64,000 nucleotides of DNA from Candidatus Shapirobacteria bacterium (GTDB lineage Bacteria > Patescibacteriota > Microgenomatia > UBA12405 > BS750m-G30), in the NCBI GenBank assembly GCA_043817235.1, contig JBDRHA010000008.1, positions 112 to 64,111 on the forward strand, written 5' to 3'. The position numbers were made by a program, and so were the translations under genes. Under the pieces are notes generated by a model. It searched no databases and was not told the origin of the DNA. It saw only the letters and a program-made list of their open reading frames with translations. Below are positions 29,661 through 53,408 of the stretch, piece after piece. How positions within the stretch are numbered: position 1 is the stretch's first letter; each line of letters opens with the position of its first letter.

Positions 29661-29666
29661 TTAATA

Positions 29667-30975: not shown

Positions 30976-30978
30976 CGC

Positions 30979-34733: not shown

Positions 34734-34745
34734 TTTACTGCTTTC

Positions 34746-35966: not shown

Positions 35967-35968
35967 GG

Positions 35969-36661
35969 TTAGTTAATAGTATCTGAAACAATCTCACCGT
36001 CTTTTAAGCGAATCGTGCGTTTTGCAAAGGCCGCGATATCGTCTTCGTGGGTAATAAGAACAATTGTGTGCCCCTTTTTATTAAGCTCACGGAAAAAAAC
36101 CATTATTTCGTGAGCTGTTTTGCTATCCAAATTTCCGGTTGGTTCATCAGCAAGGATGATAGCTGGGTTCATTACCAACGCCCGAGCAATAGCTACCCGT
36201 TGGATTTGACCACCGGAAATATGGTTAGAAAGATTGTCTGCTTTGTCGTCAATGCCAACTAACTCCAAACATTCCATCGCTCTTTTTTTCCGTCCCTCAA
36301 TATCTATACCGGCATACATCATCGGCCGTTCAACATTTTTAAAAACAGTGGTTCGCGGCAGTAAGTTAAAAGCTTGGAAAATAAAGCCAATTTCGTGGTT
36401 TCGGATATAGGCCAGATCATCACTATTGTAAGTGCTGATATCCTTGCCTTTTAAAAAATATTTACCACTCGTGGGAGTATCAAGCGCGCCTAGAATATGC
36501 ATTGTGGTTGACTTACCTGATCCCGAAGGACCCATAATCGCCACAAACTCGCCCTGATCAATATTAAGAGAGATTCCTTTTAATGCTCTGTAGGTGTCGT
36601 TTCCAACCCCATAATCTTTAACAATCTCTTTTAGTAAAATAACAGGTGTTCTTTTTTTCAT
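35969..36661 (-). CDS. ABC transporter ATP-binding protein (MacB/LolD-type)
   Basis: Start set at MKKRTPVILLKEIVKDYG to avoid overlap with adaptor gene; Walker A GPSGSGKST, signature ISGGQIQRVAIARAL, Walker B ILADEPTGNLD. Confidence 0.85.
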   Translation of the reverse strand: MKKRTPVILLKEIVKDYGVGNDTYRALKGISLNIDQGEFVAIMGPSGSGKSTTMHILGALDTPTSGKYFLKGKDISTYNSDDLAYIRNHEIGFIFQAFNLLPRTTVFKNVERPMMYAGIDIEGRKKRAMECLELVGIDDKADNLSNHISGGQIQRVAIARALVMNPAIILADEPTGNLDSKTAHEIMVFFRELNKKGHTIVLITHEDDIAAFAKRTIRLKDGEIVSDTIN

Positions 36662-36668
36662 ACATATT

Positions 36669-37871
36669 TTACCTACCAAACGGTCCTCCGCCATTAGCTT
36701 CAACAACTCCATTCTTAGCACCAGTTATTACTTCCATACCTTCTTCGACTCCACTTATTATCTGAGTTCTTTCGGGACTCTTAATTCCCACTTCAACTGG
36801 GATATATTTTGGCATGTCGGTTTGCGGGTCGATTACTTGTACTGCCTTGCCCCCTTGGTAGGGTTTAATTGCACTGTTTGGAACTATCAAGGCATTTTCA
36901 GCTTTATCGACTACAATATCTACATTTGCCGTCATCATAGAACGGATGGAGCTCTCGGGATCAATTATTTCAACCACAACCGTATAAGTGATAACTCCAT
37001 TAGCATTTATACCAATTGTGTCTACATGGGTTACCTTGCCTTGGAACTTTTTACCTGGAAAAGCGTCAAGGGTAAAAGTGGCAGACTGATCTACCTTTAC
37101 CTTAGGAATGTCAACCTCATTTAGCTCAAGAGTTACTGTATATCTTGAGAAGTTCCCAACCACCAAAACTGGGATTCCTCCTGTGCTGCTATTTCCAGCA
37201 ACTACATGGTCACCAGCCTTAGACAAAAAATTAGCCACAGTTCCACTTGCTGGAGCGCGGACTATGATATTTTGTGTTGCGAAGTAAGCTAGTTCGGCTG
37301 ATTTCAAGGAAGCTTCGGCAGCGGCAATGGCATCATATGCGGAGTCCCTTGCTGCTTGAGCTGTAGTTCTTAATGCTTTCTGTGCAAATGTCTCATCTGA
37401 GTCATGATCTTTTACATCGTCTTCCACTTTTTGCGCAGTTGCTTCGCGATCCCGATAGGTATTCAAGGCTTGATTATAGGCAGAAGAAGCACCTTGGTAT
37501 GTAGCGAAAGCCGCGGCTTTTTCTTGATCTGTAGCAGTACTCCTCACTTTAAAAAGATTCTGACCTGCCTTAACTTCTGCGCCATTTTCAATATATACAA
37601 CCTCTATAATTCCAGTTGAGCTTGAGTAAACATCAACTATACCAGAAGAGTTTACATTCCCAGTTTCGGATACAATTTGCTCAATATTCCTTCGTTCGAC
37701 TTTCTGAAAAAGATATTCCGGTTGATTGTTTGTATTTCCAATACGATTGAATGCAAAATAAGCAACTCCAAGAATCAAGGTGACAGTAATTATTTTTTTA
37801 ACTAGGCTAAGTTTCAAAAACCATTTTTTGACACGAAGAGCCCCACCTTTTATTTTTTTAAAGATTTTCAT
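36669..37871 (-). CDS. Efflux transporter periplasmic adaptor subunit (membrane fusion protein, HlyD/MacA-like)
   Basis: 400 aa; N-terminal TM anchor, coiled-coil region, beta-barrel/lipoyl-like segments typical of MFPs. Confidence 0.7.
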   Translation of the reverse strand: MKIFKKIKGGALRVKKWFLKLSLVKKIITVTLILGVAYFAFNRIGNTNNQPEYLFQKVERRNIEQIVSETGNVNSSGIVDVYSSSTGIIEVVYIENGAEVKAGQNLFKVRSTATDQEKAAAFATYQGASSAYNQALNTYRDREATAQKVEDDVKDHDSDETFAQKALRTTAQAARDSAYDAIAAAEASLKSAELAYFATQNIIVRAPASGTVANFLSKAGDHVVAGNSSTGGIPVLVVGNFSRYTVTLELNEVDIPKVKVDQSATFTLDAFPGKKFQGKVTHVDTIGINANGVITYTVVVEIIDPESSIRSMMTANVDIVVDKAENALIVPNSAIKPYQGGKAVQVIDPQTDMPKYIPVEVGIKSPERTQIISGVEEGMEVITGAKNGVVEANGGGPFGR

Positions 37872-37872
37872 T

Positions 37873-38367
37873 TTAATTTTCCTGCTCTTCCAGTGAGTGA
37901 AGTATTTTTTTGTGGATGCGTATTAGCTCTTTTAAGTCGCTTTCTGATATTAAGTCTAAAACCTTACCCATTTTGTGAAACATCCGCTTACGTGTCTCAA
38001 CTATCTCTGATCTGCCTTTATCAGTTAGATTAAGACGCACTATTCTACGATCGTTAACGTCGGGTTTTCTTGAAATCAGTTTGTTTTCGGTTAATCTGTC
38101 TGTAAATTGAGCAATAGATGAAGATGACATGTTTACAGCTTGAGCTAGCTCACTCACAGTTGAGTTTGGACTTTCGCTCAAATAAGATAATCCTTGCATT
38201 TGCAAAATTGTCGCAGCCTTATCTTCCAAGGAGCAGTTAACACTTCTTTCTGCAATGCGACTAATTTTGGTCACTGTTGCAAAAAATTCTTCGAATAATT
38301 CTTGTTTTATATTGTTCATAATTAACTTAGACATTAAGTATCTTAACATATAAGATATTGTTGTCAA
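37873..38367 (-). CDS. MarR-family transcriptional regulator
   Basis: 164 aa; wHTH with NDRRIVRLNLTDKGR recognition/wing motif; first gene of efflux operon. Confidence 0.7.
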   Translation of the reverse strand: MTTISYMLRYLMSKLIMNNIKQELFEEFFATVTKISRIAERSVNCSLEDKAATILQMQGLSYLSESPNSTVSELAQAVNMSSSSIAQFTDRLTENKLISRKPDVNDRRIVRLNLTDKGRSEIVETRKRMFHKMGKVLDLISESDLKELIRIHKKILHSLEEQEN

Positions 38368-38396
38368 TAGTTAATTTAATGTATTAATAATCCCCC

Positions 38397-38526
38397 TTTT
38401 TTATACTGTCTCATTTGTCTCACCGTGTCCATCCATAGCTTTAGCGAAGGAGGATTTAACCTCAGATGTGATATGCTTGGAGAAAGCAGTTATGAGCTCG
38501 AAAGGTTCTAGACCGGCCTGCTCAGC
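38397..38526 (+). repeat. Bipartite conserved element, copy A (tttttatactgtctcaYttgtctcac ... agttatgag...gaaaggtYctagaccgg..tgctcagc)
   Basis: 5' block (with TATACT -10-like hexamer and tandem tgtctcaYt direct repeat) and 3' block (ggtYctagacc hairpin) both near-identical to copy at 47925-48022; middle differs. Confidence 0.45.
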
Positions 38527-38697
38527 CAGTACGGGCACCTCTGCCGACCGAGGTACCTCAAATATCCCTTATTATCTTGTAAAACGCCCATTTTCAAAGC
38601 CGAGAATTCGAACCGCTTTTTACCCTCAAAAAAGCCCCGTTCGAATCCGACTTCTGCCATTGTTTTAACTTGCTTCCTGTGATATAATTCGTTCAGT

Positions 38698-39336
38698 ATG
38701 TTAGAGAATAGGACCAGGAAAAGAATTTTTGAAATGCTTAGCCAGGCAATAAGCAGCGGGGAAGTAATTTCTCTTCGGAATATTGGGGACGAGCTTGGCT
38801 TGGCTGCCAACACGATTCTTTATCACATCAAAAAGCTTGAAGAGAAAGGGCTTGTTATCAGAAATATTGATGGCAAGGTGATCCGCATCAATTCCCCGGA
38901 AGATAATTCTGCTATTGCCTTCTTGCCTCTCTTAGGAAATGCCGCCTGTGGGGAACCCCTGGGTTCAATCGTTGAAACCGAGACGATCCGTATGATCCCG
39001 GTACCACTTAACATTCTGGGAAGAAATTCCAAGCGCAACCTCTACATGATTGAAGCAGTTGGAGACAGTATGGCAGAAAAGATTGAAAACGGTGATTATG
39101 TTATTTTCGAGCCTAACCCCTCGCCTAATCCTGGGCAGATTGTTGTGGCCAGAACAAAAGATGGATTTACAATTAAAGTTTTTAAGAAAACAGCCTCTCA
39201 GTGTATTTTGAAACCATTAAATCCAAATTATCTCCCTCTGGTTTTTGACAAAAGTGAGATAGATGAATCTTTCAACATTGACGGTGTAGCTGTGGGGATT
39301 TTTAAACCGCAGGGAAATTTAGGAGGAGGCGGGTAA
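38698..39336 (+). CDS. LexA-like repressor paralogue (wHTH + S24 peptidase), island-associated
   Basis: 212 aa; S24 catalytic Ser in AVGDSM and Lys in FTIKVFKK; N-terminal wHTH (LGLAANTILYHIKKLEEKGLV). Confidence 0.6.
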   Translation: MLENRTRKRIFEMLSQAISSGEVISLRNIGDELGLAANTILYHIKKLEEKGLVIRNIDGKVIRINSPEDNSAIAFLPLLGNAACGEPLGSIVETETIRMIPVPLNILGRNSKRNLYMIEAVGDSMAEKIENGDYVIFEPNPSPNPGQIVVARTKDGFTIKVFKKTASQCILKPLNPNYLPLVFDKSEIDESFNIDGVAVGIFKPQGNLGGGG

Positions 39337-39480
39337 AAATGGCAAAAGTTATATGCCCATTGTTTCCTAATGGTATCAGCAACATAAGATACAGGCAAAT
39401 TAGAAACCCAAGGGATTTTATTCATGTTGCCTTTATTAAAAATTCTTTTGGAAAGAGGACAAGGAAGGGGATGTCGAAAA

Positions 39481-39675
39481 ATGAAACCTAGAAATACATA
39501 CAAGTATGACTTTAAGGTCGGAAACAAAATAATGCACAGCGGGATTACTAGGAACCTAGATAGGCGTGAATTGGATCATAAACAAAAGTGGCCCAAAGGT
39601 CATACTGTTCAGATTGGCCGAAGAACAACCGAAGAAGCTGCCAGAAAATGGGAGGAAACAAAACAGAAAAGTTAA
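39481..39675 (+). CDS. Small GIY-YIG-like protein (weak)
   Basis: 64 aa from MKPRNTYKYDFKVGNKIMHSGITRNLDRRELDHKQ; Y-x10-(H/Y)SG-x-T...R...H spacing resembles GIY-YIG core; purine-rich RBS upstream. Confidence 0.3.
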   Translation: MKPRNTYKYDFKVGNKIMHSGITRNLDRRELDHKQKWPKGHTVQIGRRTTEEAARKWEETKQKS

Positions 39676-39709
39676 AATAATGATTGAGAAACGAGCAAAA
39701 TGAAAGGAG

Positions 39710-40090
39710 GTGAAATTTATGAAAAAGCGCATATTTATTAGCTTTGACTATGACCATGACAAAAACTATCGCTATTTATTGGCAGCCTTAGCCAAGAATC
39801 CACGATCTGATATTGAGTTTGACGATCTAACGCCAGAAGAGATTCAAAGCTACGATATTGGTCGAATAAAGGCAGTCTTAACGAGGAAAATAAGACAAGC
39901 TACGCATACATTAGTAATCATTGGAAAGCATGCAAATAGTTATCACCCGGACAGAGATGAAATTGGAGATCGAAATTGGCAGTGGTGGGAAATTAATAAG
40001 AGCGATGAGGAAAGAAAAGGATTTATCGCCGTAAAGATAGATTCATCCAACGACTCGCCGGAACCTTTGTATGGGAAAGGCGCAACTTGA
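39710..40090 (+). CDS. TIR-like domain protein (DUF1863/ThsB-like)
   Basis: 126 aa; N-terminal KKRIFISFDYDHDKNY strand (compare ThsB-type R-V-F-F-S-F-H-Y-x-D), THTLVIIGKH block, WQWWEINKSDEERKGFIAVKID with conserved Glu in W-E-I; GGAGG RBS 8 nt upstream. Confidence 0.55.
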   Translation: MKFMKKRIFISFDYDHDKNYRYLLAALAKNPRSDIEFDDLTPEEIQSYDIGRIKAVLTRKIRQATHTLVIIGKHANSYHPDRDEIGDRNWQWWEINKSDEERKGFIAVKIDSSNDSPEPLYGKGAT

Positions 40091-40143
40091 GCAAAAACTT
40101 TTTCTGTTGATTCAATAGTAAATGCGATTGATAATGCTTAATT

Positions 40144-40797
40144 ATGGTAGCCACCGACGATACAAAACTTGAAATTCTGCACGATCACTATAAAGAAAGC
40201 TTCTCGTACATTCGTGGATGGGAAGAAAAACGTGATAGGCTTTTTATATTTGTGATTGCTATGATTGGTGTCTTATTTCTCGAGATACAGTATTCCGATC
40301 TTTTTTCAAGTATTTTGGGGAATATCAAATTGGAGTTTATAGAATTAAATATCGCCTTAATGCCTATTTCTGTTTTTTTGAGTCTTACATGGACTTATTT
40401 GTTTACGATTATATTGAAATATTGCCAACAGTCCATCCTTATTGAAAGACAATATAACTACCTGCATCACTTAGAGGGTAAAATATCCAAGTTTTTTGGC
40501 GGCCGGAACATTTACTGCCGTGAGAGCAGAGCGTACCTCAATAAGTATCCCCTCTTTTCGGAGTTAGCCTGGATTTATTATGGCTTTTTGTTTCCATCAA
40601 TAGCGATACTCTCAGTCTGGCTAGTTATTTATCTTGAGTGGAACAAAATTTCAGGGCCACTATATCACTTGGTCTATGATTCATTTTTGAGCATAGCAGT
40701 AATTACGTGTTTGATATTTTATAGATTTTATCCTTTAGGTAAAAAAATAGTACTGAAGGTGAAAGATAGAATTAATTTGGCTTTTCGGGCGAAATAG
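40144..40797 (+). CDS. Four-TM membrane protein adjacent to TIR-like gene (candidate effector; SLATT-like?)
   Basis: 217 aa; ~35-aa cytoplasmic N-terminus, TM1-TM2, ~50-aa basic loop, TM3-TM4; 53-nt gap after TIR-like gene, same strand. Confidence 0.4.
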   Translation: MVATDDTKLEILHDHYKESFSYIRGWEEKRDRLFIFVIAMIGVLFLEIQYSDLFSSILGNIKLEFIELNIALMPISVFLSLTWTYLFTIILKYCQQSILIERQYNYLHHLEGKISKFFGGRNIYCRESRAYLNKYPLFSELAWIYYGFLFPSIAILSVWLVIYLEWNKISGPLYHLVYDSFLSIAVITCLIFYRFYPLGKKIVLKVKDRINLAFRAK

Positions 40798-40878
40798 TTT
40801 GGCGCCTGCCGAACTTAACAATGAGCAATGTACGATAGAGAAATGGAGTTGTGAGGCCCAGATTAAAGTCTTGTGTAA

Positions 40879-42186
40879 TTACCTTATCGGAGCTGAGCAG
40901 ACTTCCTTGTCGTGGACATAAAGATGTTTGCCGAACACTTTAACGATTTCCCTTTTTTCTTCATCAGCACCATCCCTAAGGACATATTTGGCGTATTCCG
41001 TAAAAGAAACTTCCCCTGAGCCAGGATTAATGTCTTTGAGTAGTAGCACTTGTTCTCGGATTTTCCGATAGGTTTCTATTCCAATTTTAACTTTTGGAGT
41101 CAGCTTAATTTTTTGAGGGTGGTGCATGCTCATAAAATTGATATATCTGATTAGCGCTCCGATCAGTCGTTTTTCGTTGAGCATGGGTTCTTTACATCGT
41201 TTGTTTCTGGCTTTGGAGCATTGGTAGTAGACATGCCTTCTTGGATCACGATGTTTTCTTTTTCTGAATTTTTCTTCGCCGGTGACGGTAGCTCCGCAAC
41301 TGGCACATTTGAAAATGCTTCTAAAGAGTACGTTCCGACTACCCCATTTTGACTTTTTAGGAACCACCAACTTTCTTCTGGTTTCGTTAAATATCTTTTT
41401 GGTAATCAATGGTTTATGCCCACCCTTATACCAATTACCGCTGCCAATCGAGTATTCGAATTCACCATAATAAAACGGATCGCCAAGCATTCGGTAAACT
41501 TGGCTCAAAGTTAATGGCTTGCCGGATTTATTATTAAAACCAACCTTGTCAGCCCATTTTTTAATTTGCCTACCGCTTTCTCCATTTATTACCCTGCTAA
41601 ACATTTCGGTTATGTATTTACCTCTGTCTGGGTCAACAGCGATATCTTTCTTACCAGCAAATGAGCGGTTAATATAACCGATTGGCGATGGCCCTGGTCG
41701 CCAGCCCATTTCACACTTGGCTCGGATTCCTCTTTTGACATTTATTCCCCTGTTATCGTTTTCTAACTTCGCCTGACTACATAAAATCATTAGCAGAAAC
41801 TTTTCGTTGGGATTATTAGAGAAACTTTGAGAGAAAGTTCGTATCTGGAGTAGTTTTTCCTGATCCATCAAATCAACCAGCATTCCCAAATCGCCAGCAT
41901 TACGACTCAATCGATCCGGTGCCCAAGTTAAAATGCCGCTAAATTTCCCCTGAGCAACATCAGCCAGAAGCTTGTTAAAAACTGGTCGGGTACTGGAGAT
42001 CTTGGCCGAATGGCTTTCTTGATAAATCTCTAAGATTTCAAGGCTATCCCGTTTGGCCAGAGTTTTCATTTCCTTTATCTGTGATCCGATTGACATTGCT
42101 TGTCGTTCGTCTGACTCGCTAGACTTTCTGGCATAAAGGCAATAGTTGATCAAGTCGTTTTGGGTAGCGCTTTCTATCATCAACAC
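40879..42186 (-). CDS. Large serine recombinase (resolvase/invertase catalytic domain + recombinase + zinc-ribbon)
   Basis: 435 aa; catalytic CLYARKSSESDE (Y-x-R-x-S), recombinase-domain region, Cys cluster CASCGA...C...C. Confidence 0.8.
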   Translation of the reverse strand: MLMIESATQNDLINYCLYARKSSESDERQAMSIGSQIKEMKTLAKRDSLEILEIYQESHSAKISSTRPVFNKLLADVAQGKFSGILTWAPDRLSRNAGDLGMLVDLMDQEKLLQIRTFSQSFSNNPNEKFLLMILCSQAKLENDNRGINVKRGIRAKCEMGWRPGPSPIGYINRSFAGKKDIAVDPDRGKYITEMFSRVINGESGRQIKKWADKVGFNNKSGKPLTLSQVYRMLGDPFYYGEFEYSIGSGNWYKGGHKPLITKKIFNETRRKLVVPKKSKWGSRNVLFRSIFKCASCGATVTGEEKFRKRKHRDPRRHVYYQCSKARNKRCKEPMLNEKRLIGALIRYINFMSMHHPQKIKLTPKVKIGIETYRKIREQVLLLKDINPGSGEVSFTEYAKYVLRDGADEEKREIVKVFGKHLYVHDKEVCSAPIR

Positions 42187-42234
42187 AAGGAATGACGCAA
42201 AGGGAAGGCTAAGTCAAGGCCCAAACGATGAATT

Positions 42235-43305
42235 TTAAATCTTTGCTAGTTGCTTAAGGAGTTGCTCGAAAGCTTTGATAGAGTAGTCCTTTATTCGCCA
42301 TTTAGCCATTATACCGAAAGAGGTTTTCATTTTTTCTGAAATTTCAGCTTCGGGAATTACCTCTTTGATTATTTTTCTCGATTCTTGGTCAATGTTTTTA
42401 GTGCCCCAAAATTCCAATTTTGGACCTTGGTTACCAGCAACTATTGGAAAGGAAATTGTTATCTTGTCACCAATGCTTGTTGTCACATAAAAATTTAAGT
42501 TTCTGGGAGTTTTGACAACAGCAACATTTTTCACCTCTTTCCCCCTTTCCTTTAATTGGTTAAAAAAGATGATCAACTTTTTAATATTTTTTTCTTCAGC
42601 TAATCCCTGATATGCTTCTACAAAATCTTCATCTGTCGGAATACTTCGGGTTGATTTAACTCCAAGGTCCTTTTTAACTTCTGCGCCGAATAACTTCGGA
42701 ATCAGAATTTCAAAGCCTTTGTGTTTGTAAAATTCCAGCTCAACTGCGTAAACGGTAAACTCACTGTTGTTATTTAAGAAGATAATCAGATCCTTTAATT
42801 GAGGATGAAGATGATCCATGAGGACTACAAACTTAAAGTTGCCGTCACTCAGATTTCTTCTGGTGTTTTCCAAAAGGTTGTCGGTTTCGTCTTCTGAGAT
42901 ACCGAAAAACTCCCCCAGCCTTTGACTTAAGGTTTTATTAAAATCCTTATTGGTATTAAGACTAACTTGTTCGACGAAATCGGTAAAATCTCGGTAATTC
43001 GACCAAAGTGATGCTCCGTAATCCAGAACCTGCGCAACCACCATTCTTTTATCCGGATTTTTGTAAAGCTTCGTTTCAATTAGATAAATCTCCCCCTCTC
43101 TATCCACACCCAAAGCATCAATCGATCCACTTTTTGTTGTAAACTCACGAGCTAAGATTAAAAGTCTTATGTCTTCTTTAATATCATAAAGGGGAATACT
43201 TTCGGGATTGTCATAAATATACTGTTGAAGATGATCTTCAAGTTCAAAATTGCTCTTGTTTATTTTGATCGCGTTCTTGCCATTTTTTGAGACGATGATT
43301 GCCAT
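42235..43305 (-). CDS. Restriction-endonuclease-like (PD-(D/E)XK fold) protein, family unassigned (Shedu/DUF4263-like possible)
   Basis: 356 aa; N-terminal GSIDALGVDREGEIYLIETKLYKN ... QVLDY fits D-(x)n-E-x-K nuclease core. Confidence 0.35.
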   Translation of the reverse strand: MAIIVSKNGKNAIKINKSNFELEDHLQQYIYDNPESIPLYDIKEDIRLLILAREFTTKSGSIDALGVDREGEIYLIETKLYKNPDKRMVVAQVLDYGASLWSNYRDFTDFVEQVSLNTNKDFNKTLSQRLGEFFGISEDETDNLLENTRRNLSDGNFKFVVLMDHLHPQLKDLIIFLNNNSEFTVYAVELEFYKHKGFEILIPKLFGAEVKKDLGVKSTRSIPTDEDFVEAYQGLAEEKNIKKLIIFFNQLKERGKEVKNVAVVKTPRNLNFYVTTSIGDKITISFPIVAGNQGPKLEFWGTKNIDQESRKIIKEVIPEAEISEKMKTSFGIMAKWRIKDYSIKAFEQLLKQLAKI

Positions 43306-43481
43306 TTACCCTCCAGTTATTTTTAGCTGGAGGGTTTAAATGATAAAGGCTCCCCTCCAGCTGATGGTCCTTACGGAATCCACCCGCCAACCTTTCGATT
43401 GGTGACCTGCAGAAGGCAACACTGACGAGGAGCTCTCGTCCCTTCTGCAGGACTTTCTTGCCATGCCCCGATTATTCGGGG
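43306..43481 (-). promoter_or_regulatory. GC-rich structured 5' leader of the 42235-43305 gene with alternative RBS-sequestering helices
   Basis: On the minus-strand RNA: hairpin ccccgaauaaucgggg; long hairpin ccugcagaagg...ccuucugcagg; then cagcuggagggg / cccuccagcu / cuggaggg(uaa)AUG, where the middle segment can pair with either neighbour. Confidence 0.35.
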
Positions 43482-43617
43482 TTTAGGCAATATTTAATGG
43501 TAACGTTTTTTATTTTGATATTTTTAGTGATTTAATAAAGAAGCAAAACAACACAGATCTCCTGATTCCAGCCATAATCAATCTAAGGACCTCAGTTTAA
43601 TTAAGGCTAAATATTGC

Positions 43618-44160
43618 TTAAAGTTTTTTGTTCTTTTTAGCTTTATATAGACTCCACGCACTTAACACGGGGAAAATGATAATTTTGTTTCTTGCTATCA
43701 TATCTTCTATCTCTTTCTCAGAAAACCAAAAACTCTTAATACCCTCTTCTTCCGAATCCTTCCTTAAATAAGGAGCTTTTTCTAGATGCCTCCCCAGGTA
43801 AACAAAGACCATTGTGGCAGAACGTCGATTGTTTAGTAAAAACTTTCCCAAGAGTATTAATTTTTTGGCTCGTAGTCTAGCTTCCTCTGCAAGCTCGCGA
43901 TTAGCGCCAACTTCTGGACTTTCATTAACCTCAAGCGCTCCTCCAGGAAATTGATAAAGTTCTCGATCTTGAGGATAAGAATACTCTTTCTGCAAAAGAA
44001 TCTTTCTGTCTTTTCTGATAGCTATAACTAACGCTGTATCAGTCCTATGCTTAAATTTAAGATAGGTTGTCTTTGCACCACTCGGAAGTACAACTTCATC
44101 CTCAATCACAGTTAGTCGAGAATGAACAAGAGTTTCCTTAGATGAAATTTTTTTCCACAT
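43618..44160 (-). CDS. NUDIX hydrolase
   Basis: 180 aa; Nudix box GGALEVNESPEVGANRELAEEARL. Confidence 0.75.
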   Translation of the reverse strand: MWKKISSKETLVHSRLTVIEDEVVLPSGAKTTYLKFKHRTDTALVIAIRKDRKILLQKEYSYPQDRELYQFPGGALEVNESPEVGANRELAEEARLRAKKLILLGKFLLNNRRSATMVFVYLGRHLEKAPYLRKDSEEEGIKSFWFSEKEIEDMIARNKIIIFPVLSAWSLYKAKKNKKL

Positions 44161-44169
44161 AAACTGTGC

Positions 44170-45600
44170 TTAATATGACTGGGCAAAAAGCCATCGATAA
44201 TGACTTTTTTTACCACAATAAATACATTTACCTTTCTCTTTTTTAGAATCCAAGGGCAAACAGCGAATAGTGGCTTTAGTTTCTTTCTTGATTTTGGCTT
44301 CGCACTTTAAATCTTCACACCAGAAGGCTGAAAGAAAACCGCGGGTGGTGCTCATAATATCTTTAAATTCATTATAACTATCAATAACAGGAGTGTTTTG
44401 TCGAGTGAATTTTTTGTGCTTCTCAAAAAGATTATGTTGAATCTTGTCTAGGAGCTTTTGAATAGTAGATTCTAGCTCGGAAACAGGCACCTTAACTTTT
44501 TTGCAGGTATCTCGGCGAAATAAAGTGATTTCATTGGCATTGGCTTCCTTAGCACCAATTTCCAAACGGATAGGTACACCTTTTAGTTCCCATTTATTGA
44601 ACTTGAAACCGGCAGATTCGTCGTCAACCAAATCAATTTCAATTCTGAACTTATTTTTGAGTTGATCGAAGATTTTTTGAGCAAACTTGGTGGCAATTTC
44701 TTGACCAGGAATGGGAACGACAATAATTTGAATTGGAGCAATATTGGGAGGCAAAATCAAACCACTGTCGTCACCATGAACCATAATTAAACTACCAATG
44801 CTTCTAGTGCTAAAACCCCAGCTGTTTTGCCATGGATGAACCGTACTTTTGTTTTGGTCCTGAACAGTCCATCCAATGGCCTTAGAAAAATTTTGGCCTA
44901 AATCATGAGAAGTGCAGGCCTGAAGGGCCTTGCCATTAGGCATTAATAATTCAAGGGTATAGGTTTTATAAGCACCAGCGAATTTTTCCGATTCGCTTTT
45001 AATACCAGGAATGCCATAAGTTGCCATTAAATTATTATAAGTTTTTTGGTAAGCATTCAGTGCCCAAATAACCTGATCTAAACTTTCTTTATGAGTTAAG
45101 TGGGCACAATGGCCCTCTTGCCATAAAAATTCCGATGTTCTTAAAAATAAGTAGGTTCGTTTTTCCCAACGAACGACATTGCCCCACTGGTTAACCAAAA
45201 TTGGCAATTCTCTCCAGGAAGTAGTCCATTTTTTGTACATTTCGTACATTATGGCTTCAGAAGTGGGACGAATAATTAATTTTTCCTTGAGTTTTTTACC
45301 ACCAGCAATAGTTACAACCGCAAAAAGGGGGGCAAAACCCTCAACATGTTCTTTCTCTTTGTTAATAAAACTTTCAGGTATGAATATAGGGAAGTAGGCA
45401 TTCTTGACTCCTCTTTCCTTAATTAATTTATCTAAAAACTGCTGGATAGCTTCCCAAAGAGCGTAACCATAAGGACGAATGATCATGCAACCTTTAACTG
45501 GGGCATAATCAGCCAATTCGGCTTTTAAAATTACATCGTTGTACCATTCAGACAAATCAACAGATCGTTTTTTGAGAAGATTTTTTTCAAATTTTGTCAT
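44170..45600 (-). CDS. proS: Proline--tRNA ligase, archaeal/eukaryotic-type
   Basis: 476 aa; class II core motifs (RPTSEAIMYEMY, FLRTSEFLWQEGHCAH), C-terminal Cys-rich Zn domain; no bacterial-type insertion domain. Confidence 0.85.
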   Translation of the reverse strand: MTKFEKNLLKKRSVDLSEWYNDVILKAELADYAPVKGCMIIRPYGYALWEAIQQFLDKLIKERGVKNAYFPIFIPESFINKEKEHVEGFAPLFAVVTIAGGKKLKEKLIIRPTSEAIMYEMYKKWTTSWRELPILVNQWGNVVRWEKRTYLFLRTSEFLWQEGHCAHLTHKESLDQVIWALNAYQKTYNNLMATYGIPGIKSESEKFAGAYKTYTLELLMPNGKALQACTSHDLGQNFSKAIGWTVQDQNKSTVHPWQNSWGFSTRSIGSLIMVHGDDSGLILPPNIAPIQIIVVPIPGQEIATKFAQKIFDQLKNKFRIEIDLVDDESAGFKFNKWELKGVPIRLEIGAKEANANEITLFRRDTCKKVKVPVSELESTIQKLLDKIQHNLFEKHKKFTRQNTPVIDSYNEFKDIMSTTRGFLSAFWCEDLKCEAKIKKETKATIRCLPLDSKKEKGKCIYCGKKSHYRWLFAQSY

Positions 45601-45722
45601 ATTTTAATTGTAACATCTTCAGGCTGTGCGCGCCATTACAATACGGCAACTCAAAAATAGACTTGTGTTGCTCTGTTTTGTATAATGTTATAAATAAATT
45701 TATTATATTCAGAAAATAATTT

Positions 45723-46994
45723 ATGTATATCTTAGGCATACAGGGAAATTTTGGTAGACCAGAGCATGATCCTAGTGCGGTTTTAATATGTGACAATGAA
45801 TTAATAGCCGCAGTAGAAGAAGAAAGATTAATCAGATATAAGTGCGCATTTGGCGTAATGCCTGACAGAGCGATCAGATATTGCCTCAAAACAGCGGGTA
45901 TAACCATGAAGGACGTTGATGTTCTCGCTTTTCCGAGAAACACTTGGACCGGGCACGAAAATCGATTAAATTGGTATTCCGAATACAACTTTGGTTTTAG
46001 GCCAAAAAAAATTGAGTTTTTCGGTCATCATTTAGCCCATGCCGCTTCAACATACCACTACTCAGGTTATAAGAAATCTCTGATTCTTACAATTGATATG
46101 ACGGGTGACGGCATATCGTTGGCTGTTTTCAGAGCCAAGGGTAACAACATTCAATTAGTTCATGAAGTTCCTTTCCCTAATTCGCTGGGTATATTTATGG
46201 CATTAATTACCCAATATCTTGGGTTTAGAAGTAGTCAGGATGAAGGAAAGGTTATGGGCTTGGCTGCCCACGGAACCCCAAGCATCGATATGTCCCCTTT
46301 GCTAAAAATTACCAAAGATGGATATAAGTTTAACCCCAAAAGTTTACATCCGGAAGTATTTAAGAGATATCCAGAATTTCATATGAGACAGTTGCCTTTT
46401 TTCAGCAAGATGGTCGAGGGGGTTTTACCGAAAAGAAGATTGGCTAATGAGGAAATCCTAACAGAACATAAAAATATTGCTGCTAGTGCCCAAAAAATAG
46501 TTGAGGATGCGGTTTTTAAAATTATCGAATTATTTAAGAAAAGGAGTGATGAATATTTGTGCCTTGCCGGTGGAGTAACCCAAAACTCAGTATTAAATGG
46601 GAAAATTGTGAGCAGTAGATTATTTAAAGAGGTCTTTATTGCTCCAGCAGTTGGTGACGCAGGCAGCGCATTAGGTGCTGCAACTTTAGCACAAGTGCAA
46701 TCCGGTTTTAAGCCAAAGGTCATGAAATCATGTTACCTGGGCCCAAGTTATTCAAGTGAATATATTAAAAGTTATCTCGAGAAAAATCGTATTAAATATA
46801 AAGAATATCCGGATAGCGTCGACAAAGTGGCCAGTGATCTAGCCGAAGGGAAAATAGTTGCCTTGTTCCAGGGCCGTATGGAATTTGGGCCAAGAGCCTT
46901 GGGCAACAGATCACTACTGGCCAACCCAAAAACTAAAGGAATGAAATATAAAGTTAACATTATAAAAAATCGTGAACAATTTAGGCCCTACTGA
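45723..46994 (+). CDS. Carbamoyltransferase (NodU/CmcH family) N-terminal domain, C-terminally truncated
   Basis: 423 aa; Kae1/HypF-like fold motifs (MYILGIQGNFGRPEHDPSAVLI, FFGHHLAHAASTYHYSGY, AGGVTQNSVLNG); ends at NREQFRPY where full-length proteins continue FRPFAP... Confidence 0.6.
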   Translation: MYILGIQGNFGRPEHDPSAVLICDNELIAAVEEERLIRYKCAFGVMPDRAIRYCLKTAGITMKDVDVLAFPRNTWTGHENRLNWYSEYNFGFRPKKIEFFGHHLAHAASTYHYSGYKKSLILTIDMTGDGISLAVFRAKGNNIQLVHEVPFPNSLGIFMALITQYLGFRSSQDEGKVMGLAAHGTPSIDMSPLLKITKDGYKFNPKSLHPEVFKRYPEFHMRQLPFFSKMVEGVLPKRRLANEEILTEHKNIAASAQKIVEDAVFKIIELFKKRSDEYLCLAGGVTQNSVLNGKIVSSRLFKEVFIAPAVGDAGSALGAATLAQVQSGFKPKVMKSCYLGPSYSSEYIKSYLEKNRIKYKEYPDSVDKVASDLAEGKIVALFQGRMEFGPRALGNRSLLANPKTKGMKYKVNIIKNREQFRPY

Positions 46995-47801
46995 AAAATA
47001 CCGAGCATAATCTGCTATGGTTCTAACACTATCCGGAATTTCAATTTTCTTTACGGGCAACATTTTTTCATCAAGATTAATATTTTCTTTTTTAAAAACC
47101 GCCACATCTATGTGGGCCAAATACTGATGGTTTTTTGTAGTTACGTACTTACTCTCTCCATGTTTAGAATTCAAAACAAACTCATAAGCCGATAGCCCAC
47201 CAGCAAATCCGCCATCTGATCTAATTTTAAATACTTTTAAAGTCAGATCATCAAAGAATTTAATAAAAATGTCTGATATTTTCTTGTACTCTTTTTGAAA
47301 ACTGGACTCGTCAGCGTGAAAGGAATAGGAGTCCATCATGGTAAATTCTTTCAGCCTTAGTAGCCCACGAGTATGATATTCATTCCTAAACTTCTTTCCA
47401 AACTGGAAAAAATTAACTGGTAAATCGTTACGAGCAATATTGTAATTTCTAATTAAATTTAAATACATCTCTTCCGGAGAAGCTGCCAAATTATATCTAG
47501 AACCACCACGATCAATTAAATTAGTTACAAAAAAATCCCCTAAATAATTACGCCTACTTTCCTCCCAAAGATTATTTGAATGAAAAAGAGGAAGCATGGT
47601 TTCTTGTGCTCCAATTTTCCACATATATTCCCCCAATAACCTAGTTACATTATGGAACACAATCATGCCGAGAGGCAAAAAATAATACCTTCCGTTTCTA
47701 TATTTTTGTATAAAACAGCCATTTCTCAAAAACTTTTCAACTGATCCTAACGAAGATTTACTTTTTTTATTAGTTTTAAAAAATATTTTTGATAGCCTCA
47801 T
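46914..47801 (-). pseudogene. Bacterial-type proline--tRNA ligase N-terminal fragment (truncated after motif 2)
   Basis: 295 aa; LPVNFFQFGKKFRNEYHTRGLLRLKEFTMMDSYSFHADESS aligns with bacterial ProRS motif 2 region; lacks motif 3 and anticodon-binding domain; overlaps the truncated carbamoyltransferase by 81 nt. Confidence 0.6.
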
Positions 47802-47924
47802 TGATTTTACTTAATTCTATCATAGCTTTTAGTAATTATTTGGCCTTTAATGAAACATCTATGCCTTCGGCAATCTTGTCGAGATAGCTATAATTGAGAT
47901 TAATCACGCTGGTTATGAAATCTC

Positions 47925-48022
47925 TTTTTTATACTGTCTCACTTGTCTCACTTAGCCTCGAAATGATACACTAGAAATACTGAGTTATGAGGATAGAAAG
48001 GTCCTAGACCGGTATGCTCAGC
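47925..48022 (+). repeat. Bipartite conserved element, copy B
   Basis: ttttttatactgtctcacttgtctcac ... gagttatgaggatagaaaggtcctagaccggtatgctcagc; see copy A at 38397-38526. Confidence 0.45.
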
Positions 48023-48135
48023 TGAAAAGAAATATCTGCCTTTCATAAATTCTGCCCATAAGGAGGTGAATTAACATAGCAAAAAAACAAGAAAGCTCTC
48101 TGCCTAGAGAACAAATTATCAGTACTATTCTAGGA

Positions 48136-48636
48136 ATGGTGGTCGTAATCATTGTGGGCACTTTGGTTTATCGGTATTTTCAAAAGAATCAAGAGCAAGA
48201 ATCCATTACATCCGAAGATGCTAGCGAGCAAGAAGAGACAAGTTCGCCCGCATTAGAAAATTTACCCGCTACTTATACGGTCATAGCCGGAGACAATCTC
48301 TGGGAAATAGCGGAAAACTATTATCATTCAGGCTATAATTGGGTAGATATTGCAGAAGAAAACAGCTTAGCAAATCCCAATGGGCTGGAGATCGGACAGG
48401 AACTAATTATTCCAGATGTAGACCCCCGCCAGGTTACGGTAACTGCGGTTGCCGCCGGAGAAACGATTAGTCAAGGAACTTATACAGTTCAGGAAGGAGA
48501 TTGGCTGAGCAAGATTGCCCTGCGTGCTTATGGCGATATGTTTGCTTGGGAAAAAATTTATGAGGCAAACAAAAATACTATCGGACCCAATCCTAATCTA
48601 GTAGAGCCAGGTCAAGTCTTGACTATTCCGGAATAA
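48136..48636 (+). CDS. LysM-domain protein (two LysM repeats)
   Basis: 166 aa from the ATG; two LysM motifs (YTVIAGDNLWEIAENYY..., YTVQEGDWLSKIALRAYG...); frame open upstream to 48070 with strong SD aaggaggtg at 48060-48068, so a non-ATG start near 48076 is possible. Confidence 0.75.
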   Translation: MVVVIIVGTLVYRYFQKNQEQESITSEDASEQEETSSPALENLPATYTVIAGDNLWEIAENYYHSGYNWVDIAEENSLANPNGLEIGQELIIPDVDPRQVTVTAVAAGETISQGTYTVQEGDWLSKIALRAYGDMFAWEKIYEANKNTIGPNPNLVEPGQVLTIPE

Positions 48637-48654
48637 AATTAGAGAATATTTGGC

Positions 48655-48725
48655 GCGGGTGTGGTTCAGTGGTAGAATAGCTCCTTCCCAAGGAGCAGAC
48701 GGCAGTTCAATTCTGCTCACCCGCT
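48655..48725 (+). tRNA. tRNA-Gly (anticodon CCC), no encoded CCA
   Basis: gcgggtg-tg-gttc...gctcc-ttcccaa-ggagc-agac-ggcag-ttcaatt-ctgct-cacccgc-t; followed by GC-rich hairpins. Confidence 0.8.
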
Positions 48726-48860
48726 CATCTCGCCCACGGGGCGGATGAGCGAGGCTCGCCAAAGGCGGCCCGCTCCTTGAGTTTAAATGAAGGCTAGCAC
48801 TTATATTCTCCAAAGAGTGAGTATTTTTAAAAAAAAGTTGGCCATAAAATCACACTTAAT

Positions 48861-48883
48861 TCTGGCTTGAACCAGATTTTTTT
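48861..48883 (+). terminator. Putative rho-independent terminator
   Basis: tctgg-cttgaa-ccaga hairpin followed by ttttttt; downstream of LysM/tRNA-Gly transcription unit. Confidence 0.4.
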
Positions 48884-48939
48884 GTTTTTAGGAGTTAGCC
48901 TGGAAGTGGAAAATACTGGTAACGAGAGTCGAACCTAAA

Positions 48940-49737
48940 TCAATCTTTTTTCAATGTAGCGGATATTCTCCTTGCGAACCTAAGTAGTCTCTCTTGATAA
49001 TTCTTGTTTAACTTAAATATTTTAATAAAAAGTTCAAGACCTTCTCCCATATATTTAATTGAAGTTATTCCGGATTCCATTACATAACCTGGGACAGGAC
49101 CGCCTTTAAACATAAATAGCTTATTTGCATGATCAATGCCTGCAAAATATTCATTCAAACTATTAATATCTGAGTGCTCAAGAGAAGATGCTAGATTATA
49201 TATAAAGTCGTAGTCCCACTTTAAGCCAACGTCTTCTGCCATTTTCCATATCTTTTTACCAGACCAACTATATTTATCTGAAAACCTTCTTTCAATCTTC
49301 TTGTATGAGGAGTTAATTTCTTTCTCGTCAGTTAAAACTTTTAAAAAATGGCTTTTTTGTTCCGGGTATTTCTGCGCTATATCTAAAAATCTCTTTCTTA
49401 AAACCGTGTTGTAATGAATGAATCTTTTGGCCCTAGTCTTTGGCTTAGATTCAATTATCCATTTACAACTAATTAAATTATTCAACATACTTCGAACAAC
49501 AATCATTGCATCCATTCCATAGCTCTTTTTAACAAGTTCCAAAACTGCTTTGGTTGACGTATATAACTTAGTTACCTGTAAAAACAGCAGCGTTTTACCA
49601 TAGTCTTTCTTCCCAATCATAATTGAAGGCTCGTTCATTACTTCATCAGCGAATCTATTTATCCAATTAAGATGCCTTACGATTATCTTATGTTGATTTT
49701 TATCCATGCATCCCCGAAGGGCGATCCCTGTGGCCAA
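48940..49737 (-). CDS. Hypothetical alpha-helical protein
   Basis: 265-aa ORF (start probably at internal MDKNQHK); no recognisable motif. Confidence 0.3.
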   Translation of the reverse strand: MATGIALRGCMDKNQHKIIVRHLNWINRFADEVMNEPSIMIGKKDYGKTLLFLQVTKLYTSTKAVLELVKKSYGMDAMIVVRSMLNNLISCKWIIESKPKTRAKRFIHYNTVLRKRFLDIAQKYPEQKSHFLKVLTDEKEINSSYKKIERRFSDKYSWSGKKIWKMAEDVGLKWDYDFIYNLASSLEHSDINSLNEYFAGIDHANKLFMFKGGPVPGYVMESGITSIKYMGEGLELFIKIFKLNKNYQERLLRFARRISATLKKD

Positions 49738-49825
49738 GATGGATCATTTTCGTGTCATCGGTTTTCTAATGTTAAGCCAACTTCGCAATAGAAATCACCC
49801 GGTAAATTGAGTATACCACTGAAAA

Positions 49826-50341
49826 TTATTTCTTGACTTCATATCGAAGTTCAACAATTCCGTCAGTTATTTTTTCAGCACCAATAAATTCTAGCTTGAG
49901 TTCAAAATCATCGGGTTGAAAAACCGGAATGCCATTTCCCAAAATCGACGGATTAACATCAAGGATAACTTCGTCGATAAGATCTCTTTTGGCAAACTCG
50001 CTGTTAATTGTTGCTCCACCCGTGATTATGGCTTCTTTAAATCCAGTCCTCTCTAAGATTTCCAAAGCTTCTTCTGGGGAATGTGCTAACTCAAATCCTT
50101 CTTTCAGATCAATATTTGATCTAGAAATAATAATCTTTTTTGTTTTTTCTAAATCTTTTAAATAATTCCCGTCCCATTTGCTTACAGCCTCATATGTTTT
50201 TCTGCCCCACATAAAACACCCAATCCGTTTCGCTAACTTTACAAATTGAATCCAGTTCGTATGTGAAAGAAAATCCTCACTGCCAGTTTTTGAAGCAATA
50301 ATTCCATTTGCAGAAATGGCCATTGTAAGAATAACCTTCAT
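49826..50341 (-). CDS. Dihydrofolate reductase-like (RibD C-terminal domain) family protein
   Basis: 171 aa; MKVILTMAISANGIIA...ITGGATINSEF pattern of RibD_C/YwjB-like reductases. Confidence 0.65.
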   Translation of the reverse strand: MKVILTMAISANGIIASKTGSEDFLSHTNWIQFVKLAKRIGCFMWGRKTYEAVSKWDGNYLKDLEKTKKIIISRSNIDLKEGFELAHSPEEALEILERTGFKEAIITGGATINSEFAKRDLIDEVILDVNPSILGNGIPVFQPDDFELKLEFIGAEKITDGIVELRYEVKK

Positions 50342-50495
50342 ATCTTGATTTTATCAAAAATCTCCTTAAACAAACAGAAATCAACAGTCTTGATCTGTTT
50401 TTTAAACCTCGTTCAGACTTGGTTGTAGGGTGTGAATTGATATGGTAATCTAGTTTGGGTAGATTCGGACGAAACAATGACACTTTTACCTAACA

Positions 50496-51230
50496 ATGTA
50501 TAAAAAACGATTATCTTTAAAAGAAATTAGCTTTTATACGCTACTTCAAAGCGATCCGAATTTTTCTTACATTCTGTTCCCAAAGAAAATTGAAAATAAT
50601 ATTGGTTACTTTTCACTACTTCAGTCGGGAAATTTACTTGGTAAAGACAAAAAGTTTTATGTTTTAGCAATGCAGTCTATTGCCAAATTCCACCATTTCA
50701 TTAAGACCCAGACAACTTCTTTTATTGAAGATAATAGAGACTATTATGCCCGCTCTTTAGAAAATACTATCAATTACGCTTCTGATCAAAATATTACATT
50801 GCCAGCCCAACAGGTAAGCGAGCTTCAGGTTTCATTGAAACTAATCGAAAATAATTTTCAACTGATACATGATGACTTCTTGCCACAAAACGTGCTTGTT
50901 GATCATGAAGATGTAAAGATTATTGACTGGGAAGATATGCGATATGGCTTTGCAGAACACGATATAGGAAGATTTCTTGGAGACCTACATAGCAATAAGC
51001 CAAGATGGAACAAGAAGTATTACCCTTTAGGTTGGCATAGTTCACTACTCGATGCATATCTAGAACACAGGTTGCAATTAGACTCAGACTATGACATTCA
51101 ATTAGGAAGACGCTTAATTCACTTGGGAGAAATGTGGAATTATTTAGGGCCTATTGAAATGTGTCTAAAGCGAAAACAAATAAAGACAGATTGGTTCTTG
51201 GAAAATTTGAAAGCCCTGGGAAATAGTTGA
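50496..51230 (+). CDS. Aminoglycoside/choline-kinase-like phosphotransferase (APH family)
   Basis: 244 aa; Brenner motif LIHDDFLPQNVLVD and IIDWEDMRYGFAEHD (D-x-x-x-x-N ... D). Confidence 0.6.
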   Translation: MYKKRLSLKEISFYTLLQSDPNFSYILFPKKIENNIGYFSLLQSGNLLGKDKKFYVLAMQSIAKFHHFIKTQTTSFIEDNRDYYARSLENTINYASDQNITLPAQQVSELQVSLKLIENNFQLIHDDFLPQNVLVDHEDVKIIDWEDMRYGFAEHDIGRFLGDLHSNKPRWNKKYYPLGWHSSLLDAYLEHRLQLDSDYDIQLGRRLIHLGEMWNYLGPIEMCLKRKQIKTDWFLENLKALGNS

Positions 51231-51333
51231 TGCGGTTTTTGCTTAAGGTTTGCCAAAATACTTCTTTAATTAGTAAAATAGTGTGTCTTTTGATATCAAC
51301 ATGACTATAGGATGTTGGAGTTATTAAAAACTT

Positions 51334-53286: not shown

Positions 53287-53408
53287 GATTTAATATATTA
53301 ACGCAAATTATACTATAAGATTATTATCATATTAAAGCTATGGAATTTAAAATATTCTATAATTGTTTGCTAAAAGGATTTATTCCTTAGTAAAATAAGA
53401 TACCACTT

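Follow-up and report, generated by a model that had tools for sequence, protein, structure and literature searches.

We analyzed a 64-kb stretch of DNA from a Candidatus Shapirobacteria bacterium (the window; positions are window coordinates unless a locus identifier such as L062 is given), which carries a bipartite intergenic element twice, as copy A at 38396–38526 and copy B at 47924–48022. An earlier note on this DNA had described a two-part element present twice in direct orientation, and this description was borne out. The left block, CTTTTTTATACTGTCTCAYTTGTCTCAC, lies at 38396–38423 and 47924–47951 and is identical at 27 of 28 positions, and the right block of ~40 nt, AGTTATGAG..GAAAGGTYCTAGACCGG..TGCTCAGC, lies at 38488–38526 and 47983–48022. 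With up to three mismatches allowed, the whole window contains two matches to each block and no further copies, compared to expectations from dinucleotide-preserving shuffles of 0.00 for the left block and of 0.14 and 0.01 for two right-block patterns. The middles of the copies differ mainly by a ~32-nt insert 3′ of the copy A left block and by a different subtype of the arm that follows. Both copies are in divergent intergenic regions, copy A between a MarR gene (− strand) and a LexA-like S24 gene (+ strand), and copy B between a truncated open reading frame (ORF) resembling class-II aminoacyl-tRNA synthetases (aaRS; − strand) and a LysM gene (+ strand). Exact look-ups of the MarR and LexA-like proteins of the window returned no match. 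Between copy A and copy B are genes for a TIR/ThsB-like protein, a large serine recombinase (LSR), a NUDIX protein, and ProRS, together with a LOOT RNA and a truncated carbamoyltransferase gene. The features on which the analysis rests are listed here by position; ext denotes the sequence directly 3′ of tRNA-Asp that recurs directly 3′ of copy A, the R-block is the tRNA-3′-end-like part of the element, Box0 is the conserved box preceding it, and HMM stands for hidden Markov model.

29927–30003, + strand: tRNA-Asp(GTC), from ARAGORN and Rfam, with its 3′ end as the putative chromosomal attachment point (B half-site).
30004–30075, + strand: ext copy 1, the conserved left end of island 1, directly 3′ of tRNA-Asp (..GCCCCGC|CAATCGGAGCACCCTGGTGACCGTGATACCTCGAATATCCC).
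30004–38529, no strand: island 1, with ext, a gene for a 156-aa membrane protein, two ABC exporters, MacB/ABC/YknX efflux genes, MarR, and copy A (from ORFs, with Pfam for MarR).
30130–30147, + strand: orphan Box0-like remnant GGTGAGTTATAAGGATA, read from the sequence, with no R-block 3′ of it.
38396–38423, + strand: copy A left block, C-TTTTTT-ATAC-TGTCTCA-TT-TGTCTCA-C, near-invariant in the family.
38424–38487, + strand: copy A variable spacer, consisting of the insert GTCC..GGAGGAT and the CCTCAGATGTGATATGC.. arm, from alignments.
38488–38529, + strand: copy A Box0 AGTTATGAGC and R-block AAAGGTTCTAGACCGGCCTGCTCAGC(CA), from the R-block HMM, colinear with the T-arm, acceptor strand, and CCA of a tRNA.
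38527–38600, + strand: ext copy 2, the conserved left end of island 2, CAGTACGGGCACCTCTGCCGACCGAGGTACCTCAAATATCCC.. (ext HMM, E=1e-15).
38527–48022, no strand: island 2, from Pfam and Rfam, with ext, the LexA-like S24 gene, a small ORF, the TIR/ThsB-like gene, a gene for a 217-aa protein with no assigned function, the LSR gene, a gene for a 356-aa protein with no assigned function, the LOOT RNA, the NUDIX and ProRS genes, the truncated carbamoyltransferase gene, the truncated class-II aaRS-like ORF, and copy B.
40879–42186, − strand: LSR gene, with Pfam Resolvase, Recombinase, and Zn_ribbon_recom domains, reading toward copy A and ext.
47924–47951, + strand: copy B left block, by sequence match.
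47983–48022, + strand: copy B Box0 and R-block AGTTATGAGGATAGAAAGGTCCTAGACCGGTATGCTCAGC (R-block HMM, E=7e-10), the right junction of the whole insertion.
48023–48726, + strand: ancestral 3′ flank of tRNA-Asp, with a leader, the LysM gene (48136–48636), and tRNA-Gly(CCC), from synteny with L111–L113.

Three related loci found through the LysM protein (L111–L113, 62–63% identity) carry tRNA-Asp(GTC), ~100 nt, LysM, tRNA-Gly(CCC), and tRNA-Thr(CGT) in this order, and in L111 a PolX gene lies just 5′ of tRNA-Asp, as in the window (27684–29483). The ~100 nt 3′ of tRNA-Asp in these relatives aligns with the window from 48023 onward, directly after the GCTCAGC of copy B, and they lack both the interval occupied by island 2 and, between tRNA-Asp and LysM, the efflux–MarR block of island 1. 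Thus, window 30004–48022 is an 18-kb insertion consisting of two tandem islands. The suggestion in the earlier note that direct repeats delimit a 9.5-kb segment therefore stands: the segment is absent from relatives together with the preceding 8.5 kb, and tRNA-Asp is joined there to the flank of copy B. The efflux–MarR–element block of island 1 also occurs in other contexts, in L107–L109, with an LSR gene at its far end. The junctions read CCCCGC|AAAA in the relatives, CCCCGC|CAATCGG at the left end of the insertion, CTCAGC|CAGTACG at copy A, and CTCAGC|TGAAAAG at copy B, a comparison that places the probable exchange at ..GC|CA... Our favored explanation, to which we assign a probability of roughly 0.78, is that both copies are junction modules at the level of DNA: two genomic islands have integrated one after the other at the tRNA-Asp 3′ end, and each copy is the conserved right end of one of them.

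The ext sequences connect the left end of the insertion to its internal boundary. The sequence 3′ of copy A (GCTCAGC|CAGTACGGGCACCTCTGCCGACCGAGGTACCTCAAATATCCC) recurs 3′ of tRNA-Asp (GCCCCGC|CAATCGGAGCACCCTGGTGACCGTGATACCTCGAATATCCC), where the ext HMM matches at 30000–30040 (E=2e-6 for the window alone and 2.7e-5 for all loci) and copy 1 aligns colinearly with other tRNA+ext and R-block+ext junctions. Ext copy 2 is very similar to the ext 3′ of tRNA-Gln beside a 77%-identical LSR in L102. When loci are aligned on ext, the R-block occupies the exact position of the tRNA T-arm, acceptor 3′ strand, and CCA. The family R-block consensus is identical to tRNA-Gln and tRNA-Asp ends at 15–17 of 30 positions in gapless alignment, compared to ~8 for shuffles (p about 0.0005–0.002); the R-block is a diverged likeness of a tRNA end and no exact duplicate of tRNA-Asp. 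A second subtype of the element, found in the WWE3 lineage, has an R-block that resembles the tRNA-Gly end of that lineage, and a 2.15-kb cassette lying 3′ of such an R-block in L042 (..GGTGCTCCAG|ATGTTTGAAGTTCCGACC) has a 95%-identical counterpart in L068 that lies 3′ of a genuine tRNA-Gly(TCC) end (..GTCGCTCCAG|ATGTTTGAAGTTCCGACC). In L068, a full element closes the island and is immediately followed by tRNA-Cys and tRNA-Phe. The remnant at 30130–30147 in island 1 corresponds to the sequence around Box0 in other members of the family, for example L026.

Conservation 3′ of the junction continues ~130 nt past ext (window 38570–38660, L057 3348–3480, and L102 ~12100–12165), with 77% identity between the window and L057. 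This region contains an inverted pair, GAGAATTCGAAC ... GTTCGAATCC, and a tRNA-3′-end-like sequence, GTTCGAATCCGACTTCTGCCA (38639–38659), and could be a regulatory region or the scar of another integration. We rejected the tRNA-like fragment at 38639–38659 as an att core; the window contains no matching tRNA, and the fragment lies inside the extended ext region common to L057. Another tRNA-like sequence, a degenerate version of tRNA-Asp (GGGGCTGTAGC..TCAATTGGCTAGAGCA..AGGTTGCGGGCTTGGGTT) broken by GC-rich inserts, lies 5′ of tRNA-Asp at 29540–29936. It is followed by a GIY-YIG gene (29667–29936), the end of which overlaps the start of the intact tRNA-Asp, and GIY-YIG genes recur beside the element in L010, L026, and L108.

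The LSR encoded in island 2 belongs to a large family, with at least 8000 homologues at E<1e-30; the top 120 are at least 59% identical and carry CPR (candidate phyla radiation) names where the source gives one. Three loci, L102, L104, and L106, were picked by LSR protein homology alone, blind to the element. In all three, a convergent tRNA-Gln(CTG) lies 0.1–0.9 kb past the stop codon of the LSR gene, and ext directly adjoins the 3′ end of this tRNA. In L053, an element|ext junction is followed ~100 nt on by a C-terminal LSR fragment in the same relative orientation, and L058 and L097 each have a tRNA-Gln with an ext-like match near its 3′ end. L062 mirrors the layout of the window, with two full copies of the element 7.8 kb apart and an antisense LSR gene between them, and L107 and L108 contain an efflux–MarR block that ends in the element, with a 62%-identical LSR at the opposite end. 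LSR homologues are present in L062, L042, L085, and L107/L108, in addition to the fragment in L053. From this fixed neighborhood of LSR gene, ext, and tRNA end, we infer that ext is the island end beside the LSR gene and that its partner is a tRNA end or an R-block. The LSR as an obligate neighbor of the left block or R-block was ruled out by L102–L106, where neither block lies within 10 kb; the link runs instead through ext and the tRNA end. The same neighborhood makes the CPR LSR family encoded in island 2 the most likely catalyst of the exchange.

The LOOT RNA (RF03000), an Rfam orphan motif, was detected at 43363–43489 (− strand) of the window and at 8680–8809 (+ strand) of L102, with scores of 76 and 73 bits, respectively. 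In both places the genes directly 3′ of it are the LSR gene and one for a 356/357-aa protein that is 67% identical between the two loci, and we did not find it in L062, L085, L104, L106, or L107. Given its placement in the window and in L102, LOOT appears to belong to a conserved module of CPR islands comprising LOOT, the 356-aa protein, and the LSR, and is possibly the leader of that operon.

The sequences show one architecture for both islands: each begins with ext, a conserved left end of ~70 nt, and finishes with the left block, the variable spacer, Box0, and the R-block. The R-block is an imitation of ~30 nt of a tRNA 3′ end, with T-arm-like GGTYCTAGACC and acceptor-like CTGCTCA followed by G-C, and under the tandem-island explanation exchange would occur immediately 3′ of it, at ..AGC|CA... 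In an excised circle, the R-block and ext would together form one attP-like site of ~55 bp, which the LSR would recombine with a tRNA 3′ end or with another R-block. In the integrated state, the left junction reads tRNA-end|ext and the right junction module|old tRNA flank, and at a tandem boundary, represented here by copy A, R-block and ext adjoin again.

Comparison of orthologous loci located the element relative to points at which sequences diverge. L107–L109, which were found independently of the element pattern, contain an orthologous MarR locus (84–85% identical MarR) with a full element in the same place and with the same left flank. The left block of their element is one base off that of copy A, and copy A departs from it already just 3′ of the left block; the spacer at this locus in L107–L109 is of a different subtype from that in copy A. 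Exactly 3′ of GCTCAAC, these loci diverge into a GIY-YIG gene (L107/L108) or a 204-aa gene (L109), and the window continues, 3′ of its GCTCAGC, into ext and the LexA-like gene. Five contigs from one study likewise have a common element and branch at the same point, and L024 and L071 have 2.4 kb in common at 99% identity that ends at an R-block site; L024 has an additional cassette, flanked by repeats of the site. As judged from these alignments, the element marks a precise exchange boundary.

R-blocks were also found without the rest of the element. At a cut-off of E<1e-3, an HMM of the 40-nt right block gave 52 sites in 30 non-duplicate loci, 14 of which have two to four sites; the sites are co-oriented in 14/14 (22 concordant extra sites). 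Sites lie 0.4–2.6 kb apart and enclose one to four small, mostly co-oriented genes, with the upstream stop codon 0–15 nt 5′ of a site and the next start 7–40 nt 3′ of it. WWE3-type and Peribacteria-type sites form arrays as well. The array genes have highly diverse accessory functions, including NUDIX, GIY-YIG, methyltransferase, and GNAT proteins, and R-blocks and Box0 are conserved even where the left block is absent. We interpret these R-block-only arrays as products of the same kind of site-specific exchange, either as decayed islands or as recombinase-less cassettes moved in trans.

Such arrays could alternatively represent an integron-like cassette platform run by some other recombinase, or by homologous exchange between the short conserved blocks, with the LSR as a mere passenger. 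The co-oriented sites, the one to four small genes between them, and the tight stop/start spacing fit this idea, as do the arrays that contain no recombinase and the LSR loci that have no left block or R-block within 10 kb. We found no tyrosine integrase, however, in XerD-based searches of all loci, and no integrase among the recurrent Pfam families of 148 neighboring proteins. The sites also lack the features of integron attC sites, namely R′′/R′ cores and a conserved hairpin; the Box0 sequence GTTATAA does not fit GTTRRRY, and R-block-only sites have no palindrome. Blocks of 23–28 nt are short for RecA-dependent exchange, and ext is tied to the LSR gene in all three loci chosen blind to the element. 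Taken together, these results make a cassette platform independent of the LSR quite improbable.

Several observations weigh against the favored explanation of tandem tRNA-end islands built by the LSR. Within 10 kb of the LSR gene, neither a left block nor an R-block was found in L102, L104, or L106, loci in which the right ends of the islands were not seen, and most cassette arrays contain no recombinase at all. The ~55-bp R-block+ext sequence has outer inverted motifs, and thus dyad symmetry, that are only approximate and were judged by eye, and ext is conserved over ~70–100 nt, more than the length of a half-site. The proposed exchange does not account for how strongly the left block and Box0 are conserved, as both lie inside the island and far from an att site of ~50 bp. 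ProRS, an essential synthetase, is unusual cargo for an inserted island. Finally, tandem accretion needs hybrid or attP-like partner sites, unlike the reactions of canonical phage-type serine integrases. Staphylococcal Ccr recombinases tolerate hybrid sites, and formation of R-block-only arrays by the same reaction would require a Ccr-like tolerance of this kind.

The element is not confined to the two copies in the window. The search for both blocks in other genomes that the earlier note had called for yielded, by exact-pattern scans, about 70 full elements, and the element is clearly conserved across CPR lineages. In a scan of one genome per species, the 19-mer ACTGTCTCAYTTGTCTCAC was found at 45 loci, compared to about 9 expected by our estimate, and some 20 of the 45 have the full bipartite element; these are in metagenome-assembled genomes (MAGs) of Levy-, Woyke-, WWE3, Saccharibacteria, Peribacteria, and Paceibacterota and in a few MAGs labeled otherwise. 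A metagenome scan with a 23-mer added 52 further loci, nearly all with the full element. Exact left blocks number one to two per contig of 0.5–1.2 Mb, and this low copy number, together with ends that are not inverted copies of each other, ruled out a MITE or REP-like high-copy repeat. The left block often has an inverted TGAGACA/TGATACA copy downstream, and the other conserved parts are Box0 (AGTTATAAGGA), Box1 (CYAGACC), and Box2 (YGCTCARC). The remainder of the element differs by lineage, with a type 1 (that of the window), a WWE3-type, and a Peribacteria-type, and has variable inserts at two fixed positions. IS200/IS605-type ends were also ruled out, as the IS200 element in L040 is independent, has its own hairpins, and lies 300 nt away, and so was a diversity-generating retroelement or retron, as no reverse transcriptase gene lies close by and the copies show no differences specific to adenines.

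The variable spacers of the full elements in L069 (1950–2180), L101, L074, and L058 are built of short TTCGAC-N3-9-GCTCAG modules that resemble the Box1–Box2 core (TAGACC-N4-5-GCTCAG). Earlier exchanges may have left these modules as scars, or they may constitute a CPR mini-repeat of their own.

The left block contains tandem TGTCTCA repeats, and one rival explanation is that it is mainly a regulated promoter or operator whose iterons are bound by a repressor such as the LexA-like or MarR protein, in which case the element would reflect shared regulation rather than mobility. The tandem and inverted TGTCTCA motifs are operator-like, sometimes with an extra inverted GAGACA 11–13 nt upstream, an Acidobacteria MAG and phage-like contigs have arrays of TGTCTCA 9-mers 5′ of diverse genes, and regulator genes are frequent neighbors. 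Regulation of this sort leaves the R-block, ext, the arrays, the empty site, and the junction polymorphism unexplained, however, and no sigma-70 promoter was called. The neighboring MarR and LexA-like genes have promoters of their own. We regard an element that is mainly an operator as unlikely, but an operator role for the left block alone can coexist with the tandem-island explanation. For the left block itself, our best guess is a binding site for a DNA-binding protein that the island encodes, either a regulator or a directionality factor.

The TGTCTCA 9-mers resemble Box2 (TGCTCA) and occur in other settings. One Acidobacteria MAG (YP4.bin42) has 13 copies of GAAAAAA-ACTGTCTCA-TTTGTCTCA-CCTGTCTCC-ACTGTCTCA, an array of four tandem 9-mers, 5′ of unrelated genes (L001, L002, L005, L011, L019–L022, L034, L038, L041, L044, and L045). 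Clusters of TGTCTCA iterons in both orientations were also found in other phyla and in a viral/phage contig (L012, L015/L049, L023, and L046), and those in L012 lie 230 nt upstream of an LSR homologue. These clusters probably reflect a widespread DNA-binding specificity.

The earlier note had also offered two RNA-level readings, a shared promoter/operator with a 5′-UTR motif and two copies of a small RNA locus, in which TATACT would serve as a −10 hexamer and ggtYctagacc would form a hairpin in the transcript. Several properties would suit a small RNA gene or a cis-acting 5′-UTR motif: the boundaries are sharp across the family and the blocks conserved, downstream genes are often close and co-oriented, the left block can pair imperfectly with the downstream TGAGACA/TGATACA and the GAGTTATAA arm, the inserts resemble hairpin expansions, and L081 has a minimal version followed by an intrinsic terminator. 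Neither reading was supported when folding, promoters, and terminators were analyzed. Single-sequence folds of both copies on both strands gave z-scores of 0.09 to 1.26 relative to shuffles, and thus no extra stability. RNAalifold found no consensus structure among 24 diverse full elements (−0.24 kcal/mol, with two invariant G-C pairs). The C/T difference between the copies in ggtYctagacc was confirmed, but the proposed preservation of pairing was not: the 4-bp hairpin shows no covariation among the 24 members, in 10/24 its third pair is lost, the C/U change alters one side only, and the covariation score is the same as the mean for shuffles. Rfam 15 gave no match for the window copies at E up to 10, nor for 20 family loci at the gathering score. 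The MDR-NUDIX motif, considered as a lead in view of the frequent NUDIX and efflux neighbors, gave no match either. A sigma-70 scan called TATACT in neither copy, no −35 partner was present in either, and no terminator was found 3′ of the window copies. Downstream genes are diverse, flanking genes are functionally unrelated, and R-blocks and Box0 remain conserved without the left block. A small conserved ORF in the blocks was likewise ruled out by a 1-nt indel that shifts the frame between copies and by nucleotide conservation without synonymous variation. Thus, conservation of the element is at the level of primary sequence, it is unlikely to act as an RNA, and we consider an RNA gene or leader motif very improbable as an explanation of the whole.

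Some features of island 2 and of the ancestral flank stand apart from the element. Segment 44170–47801 of island 2 contains a full ProRS gene, with ProRS-C_1, beside the C-terminally truncated carbamoyltransferase gene and the fragment encoding 295 aa of a class-II aaRS-like protein; the two fragments overlap each other and may be debris of replaced genes. The LysM gene probably starts 5′ of its first ATG (48136). A strong AAGGAGGTG site in window 48060–48138 is followed 7 nt on by ATA/GCA.., from which point relatives share a conserved sequence (..GGAGGTGAATTnAAATAGC..; ~9930–10000 in L112 and L113), suggesting a non-canonical start codon. In the relatives, either tRNA-Thr (L111 and L113) or one 791-aa gene (L112) lies within ~50–100 nt 3′ of tRNA-Gly, compared to four genes in 4.7 kb between the two tRNA genes in the window (48727–53408), a difference that may mark the 3′ end of tRNA-Gly as another hotspot of insertion.

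The att junctions of islands at tRNA genes are a known kind of feature, but the variant described here is unusual in its serine recombinase, its island-borne tRNA-end mimic, its integron-like arrays, and its CPR-wide conserved end module; we found nothing relevant in the literature on CPR integron-like or serine-recombinase cassette systems. Classical pathogenicity islands and the tycheposon arrays of Prochlorococcus are islands that accrete in tandem at tRNA 3′ ends. The islands in the window resemble them in their insertion exactly at a tRNA 3′ end with an empty site in relatives, in the co-oriented short tRNA-end-like repeats that split tandem islands, and in the many cargo-only modules without an integrase. 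They differ in that the repeat is a diverged imitation (about 50% identity) rather than an exact copy, in that the crossover appears to lie at or after the discriminator/CCA position, so that the tRNA would not be rebuilt, in that the candidate enzyme is an LSR rather than a tyrosine recombinase, and in the presence of an extra conserved module of ~60–110 nt (left block and Box0).

In SCCmec and related SCC composite islands, Ccr large serine recombinases act with ISS direct repeats at the 3′ end of rlmH (orfX). That system has in common with ours an LSR, a conserved gene 3′ end as target, short direct repeats bounding the elements, and recombinase-less pseudo-elements in tandem arrays, but our islands use a tRNA end (Asp, Gln, or Gly) or a mimic of one as their target, the hosts are CPR bacteria, the site sequences are unrelated, and there is no ccrA/ccrB pair. 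Phage-type large serine integrases that use attP/attB sites, such as those of phiC31, Bxb1, and A118, likewise combine Resolvase, Recombinase, and Zn ribbon domains and are encoded beside one site half. The counterpart of their sites here would be the ~55-bp R-block+ext sequence with its approximate outer inverted motifs and an apparent crossover within 2 bp (..GC|CA..). To our knowledge, canonical phage-type serine integrases recombine only attP with attB and build no arrays, whereas attP-like junctions persist here between tandem islands and many sites look like hybrids. Integron attI/attC systems are similar in their compact arrays of small, mostly co-oriented accessory genes with a conserved site after each, in sites of variable length with conserved ends, and in hypervariable cassette content at a fixed junction, but the loci described here lack an IntI tyrosine recombinase, RYYYAAC/GTTRRRY cores, and a conserved fold.

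One extension of the tandem-island explanation is that the island-borne imitation of a tRNA end regenerates the landing pad each time an island inserts, so that one LSR family stacks islands and recombinase-less cassettes into integron-like arrays throughout the CPR. The left block would then serve for control, such as by an operator or by a switch that reads outward into the next arrival; we offer this tentatively, as a possibility that we doubt more than we believe. CPR genomes are tiny and gene flow among them is poorly understood, and the signature of left block, R-block, and ext pinpoints island boundaries and cassette arrays in assemblies and ties CPR islands to a serine recombinase family that is both very widespread and strongly conserved. 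Pairs of these recombinases and their sites are candidates for new site-specific integration tools, and the element is a warning for annotation that a strikingly conserved intergenic sequence is not necessarily an RNA gene. For the biology of the CPR, the results suggest a serine-recombinase counterpart of integron-like or SCC-like cassette accretion that uses mimics of tRNA ends.

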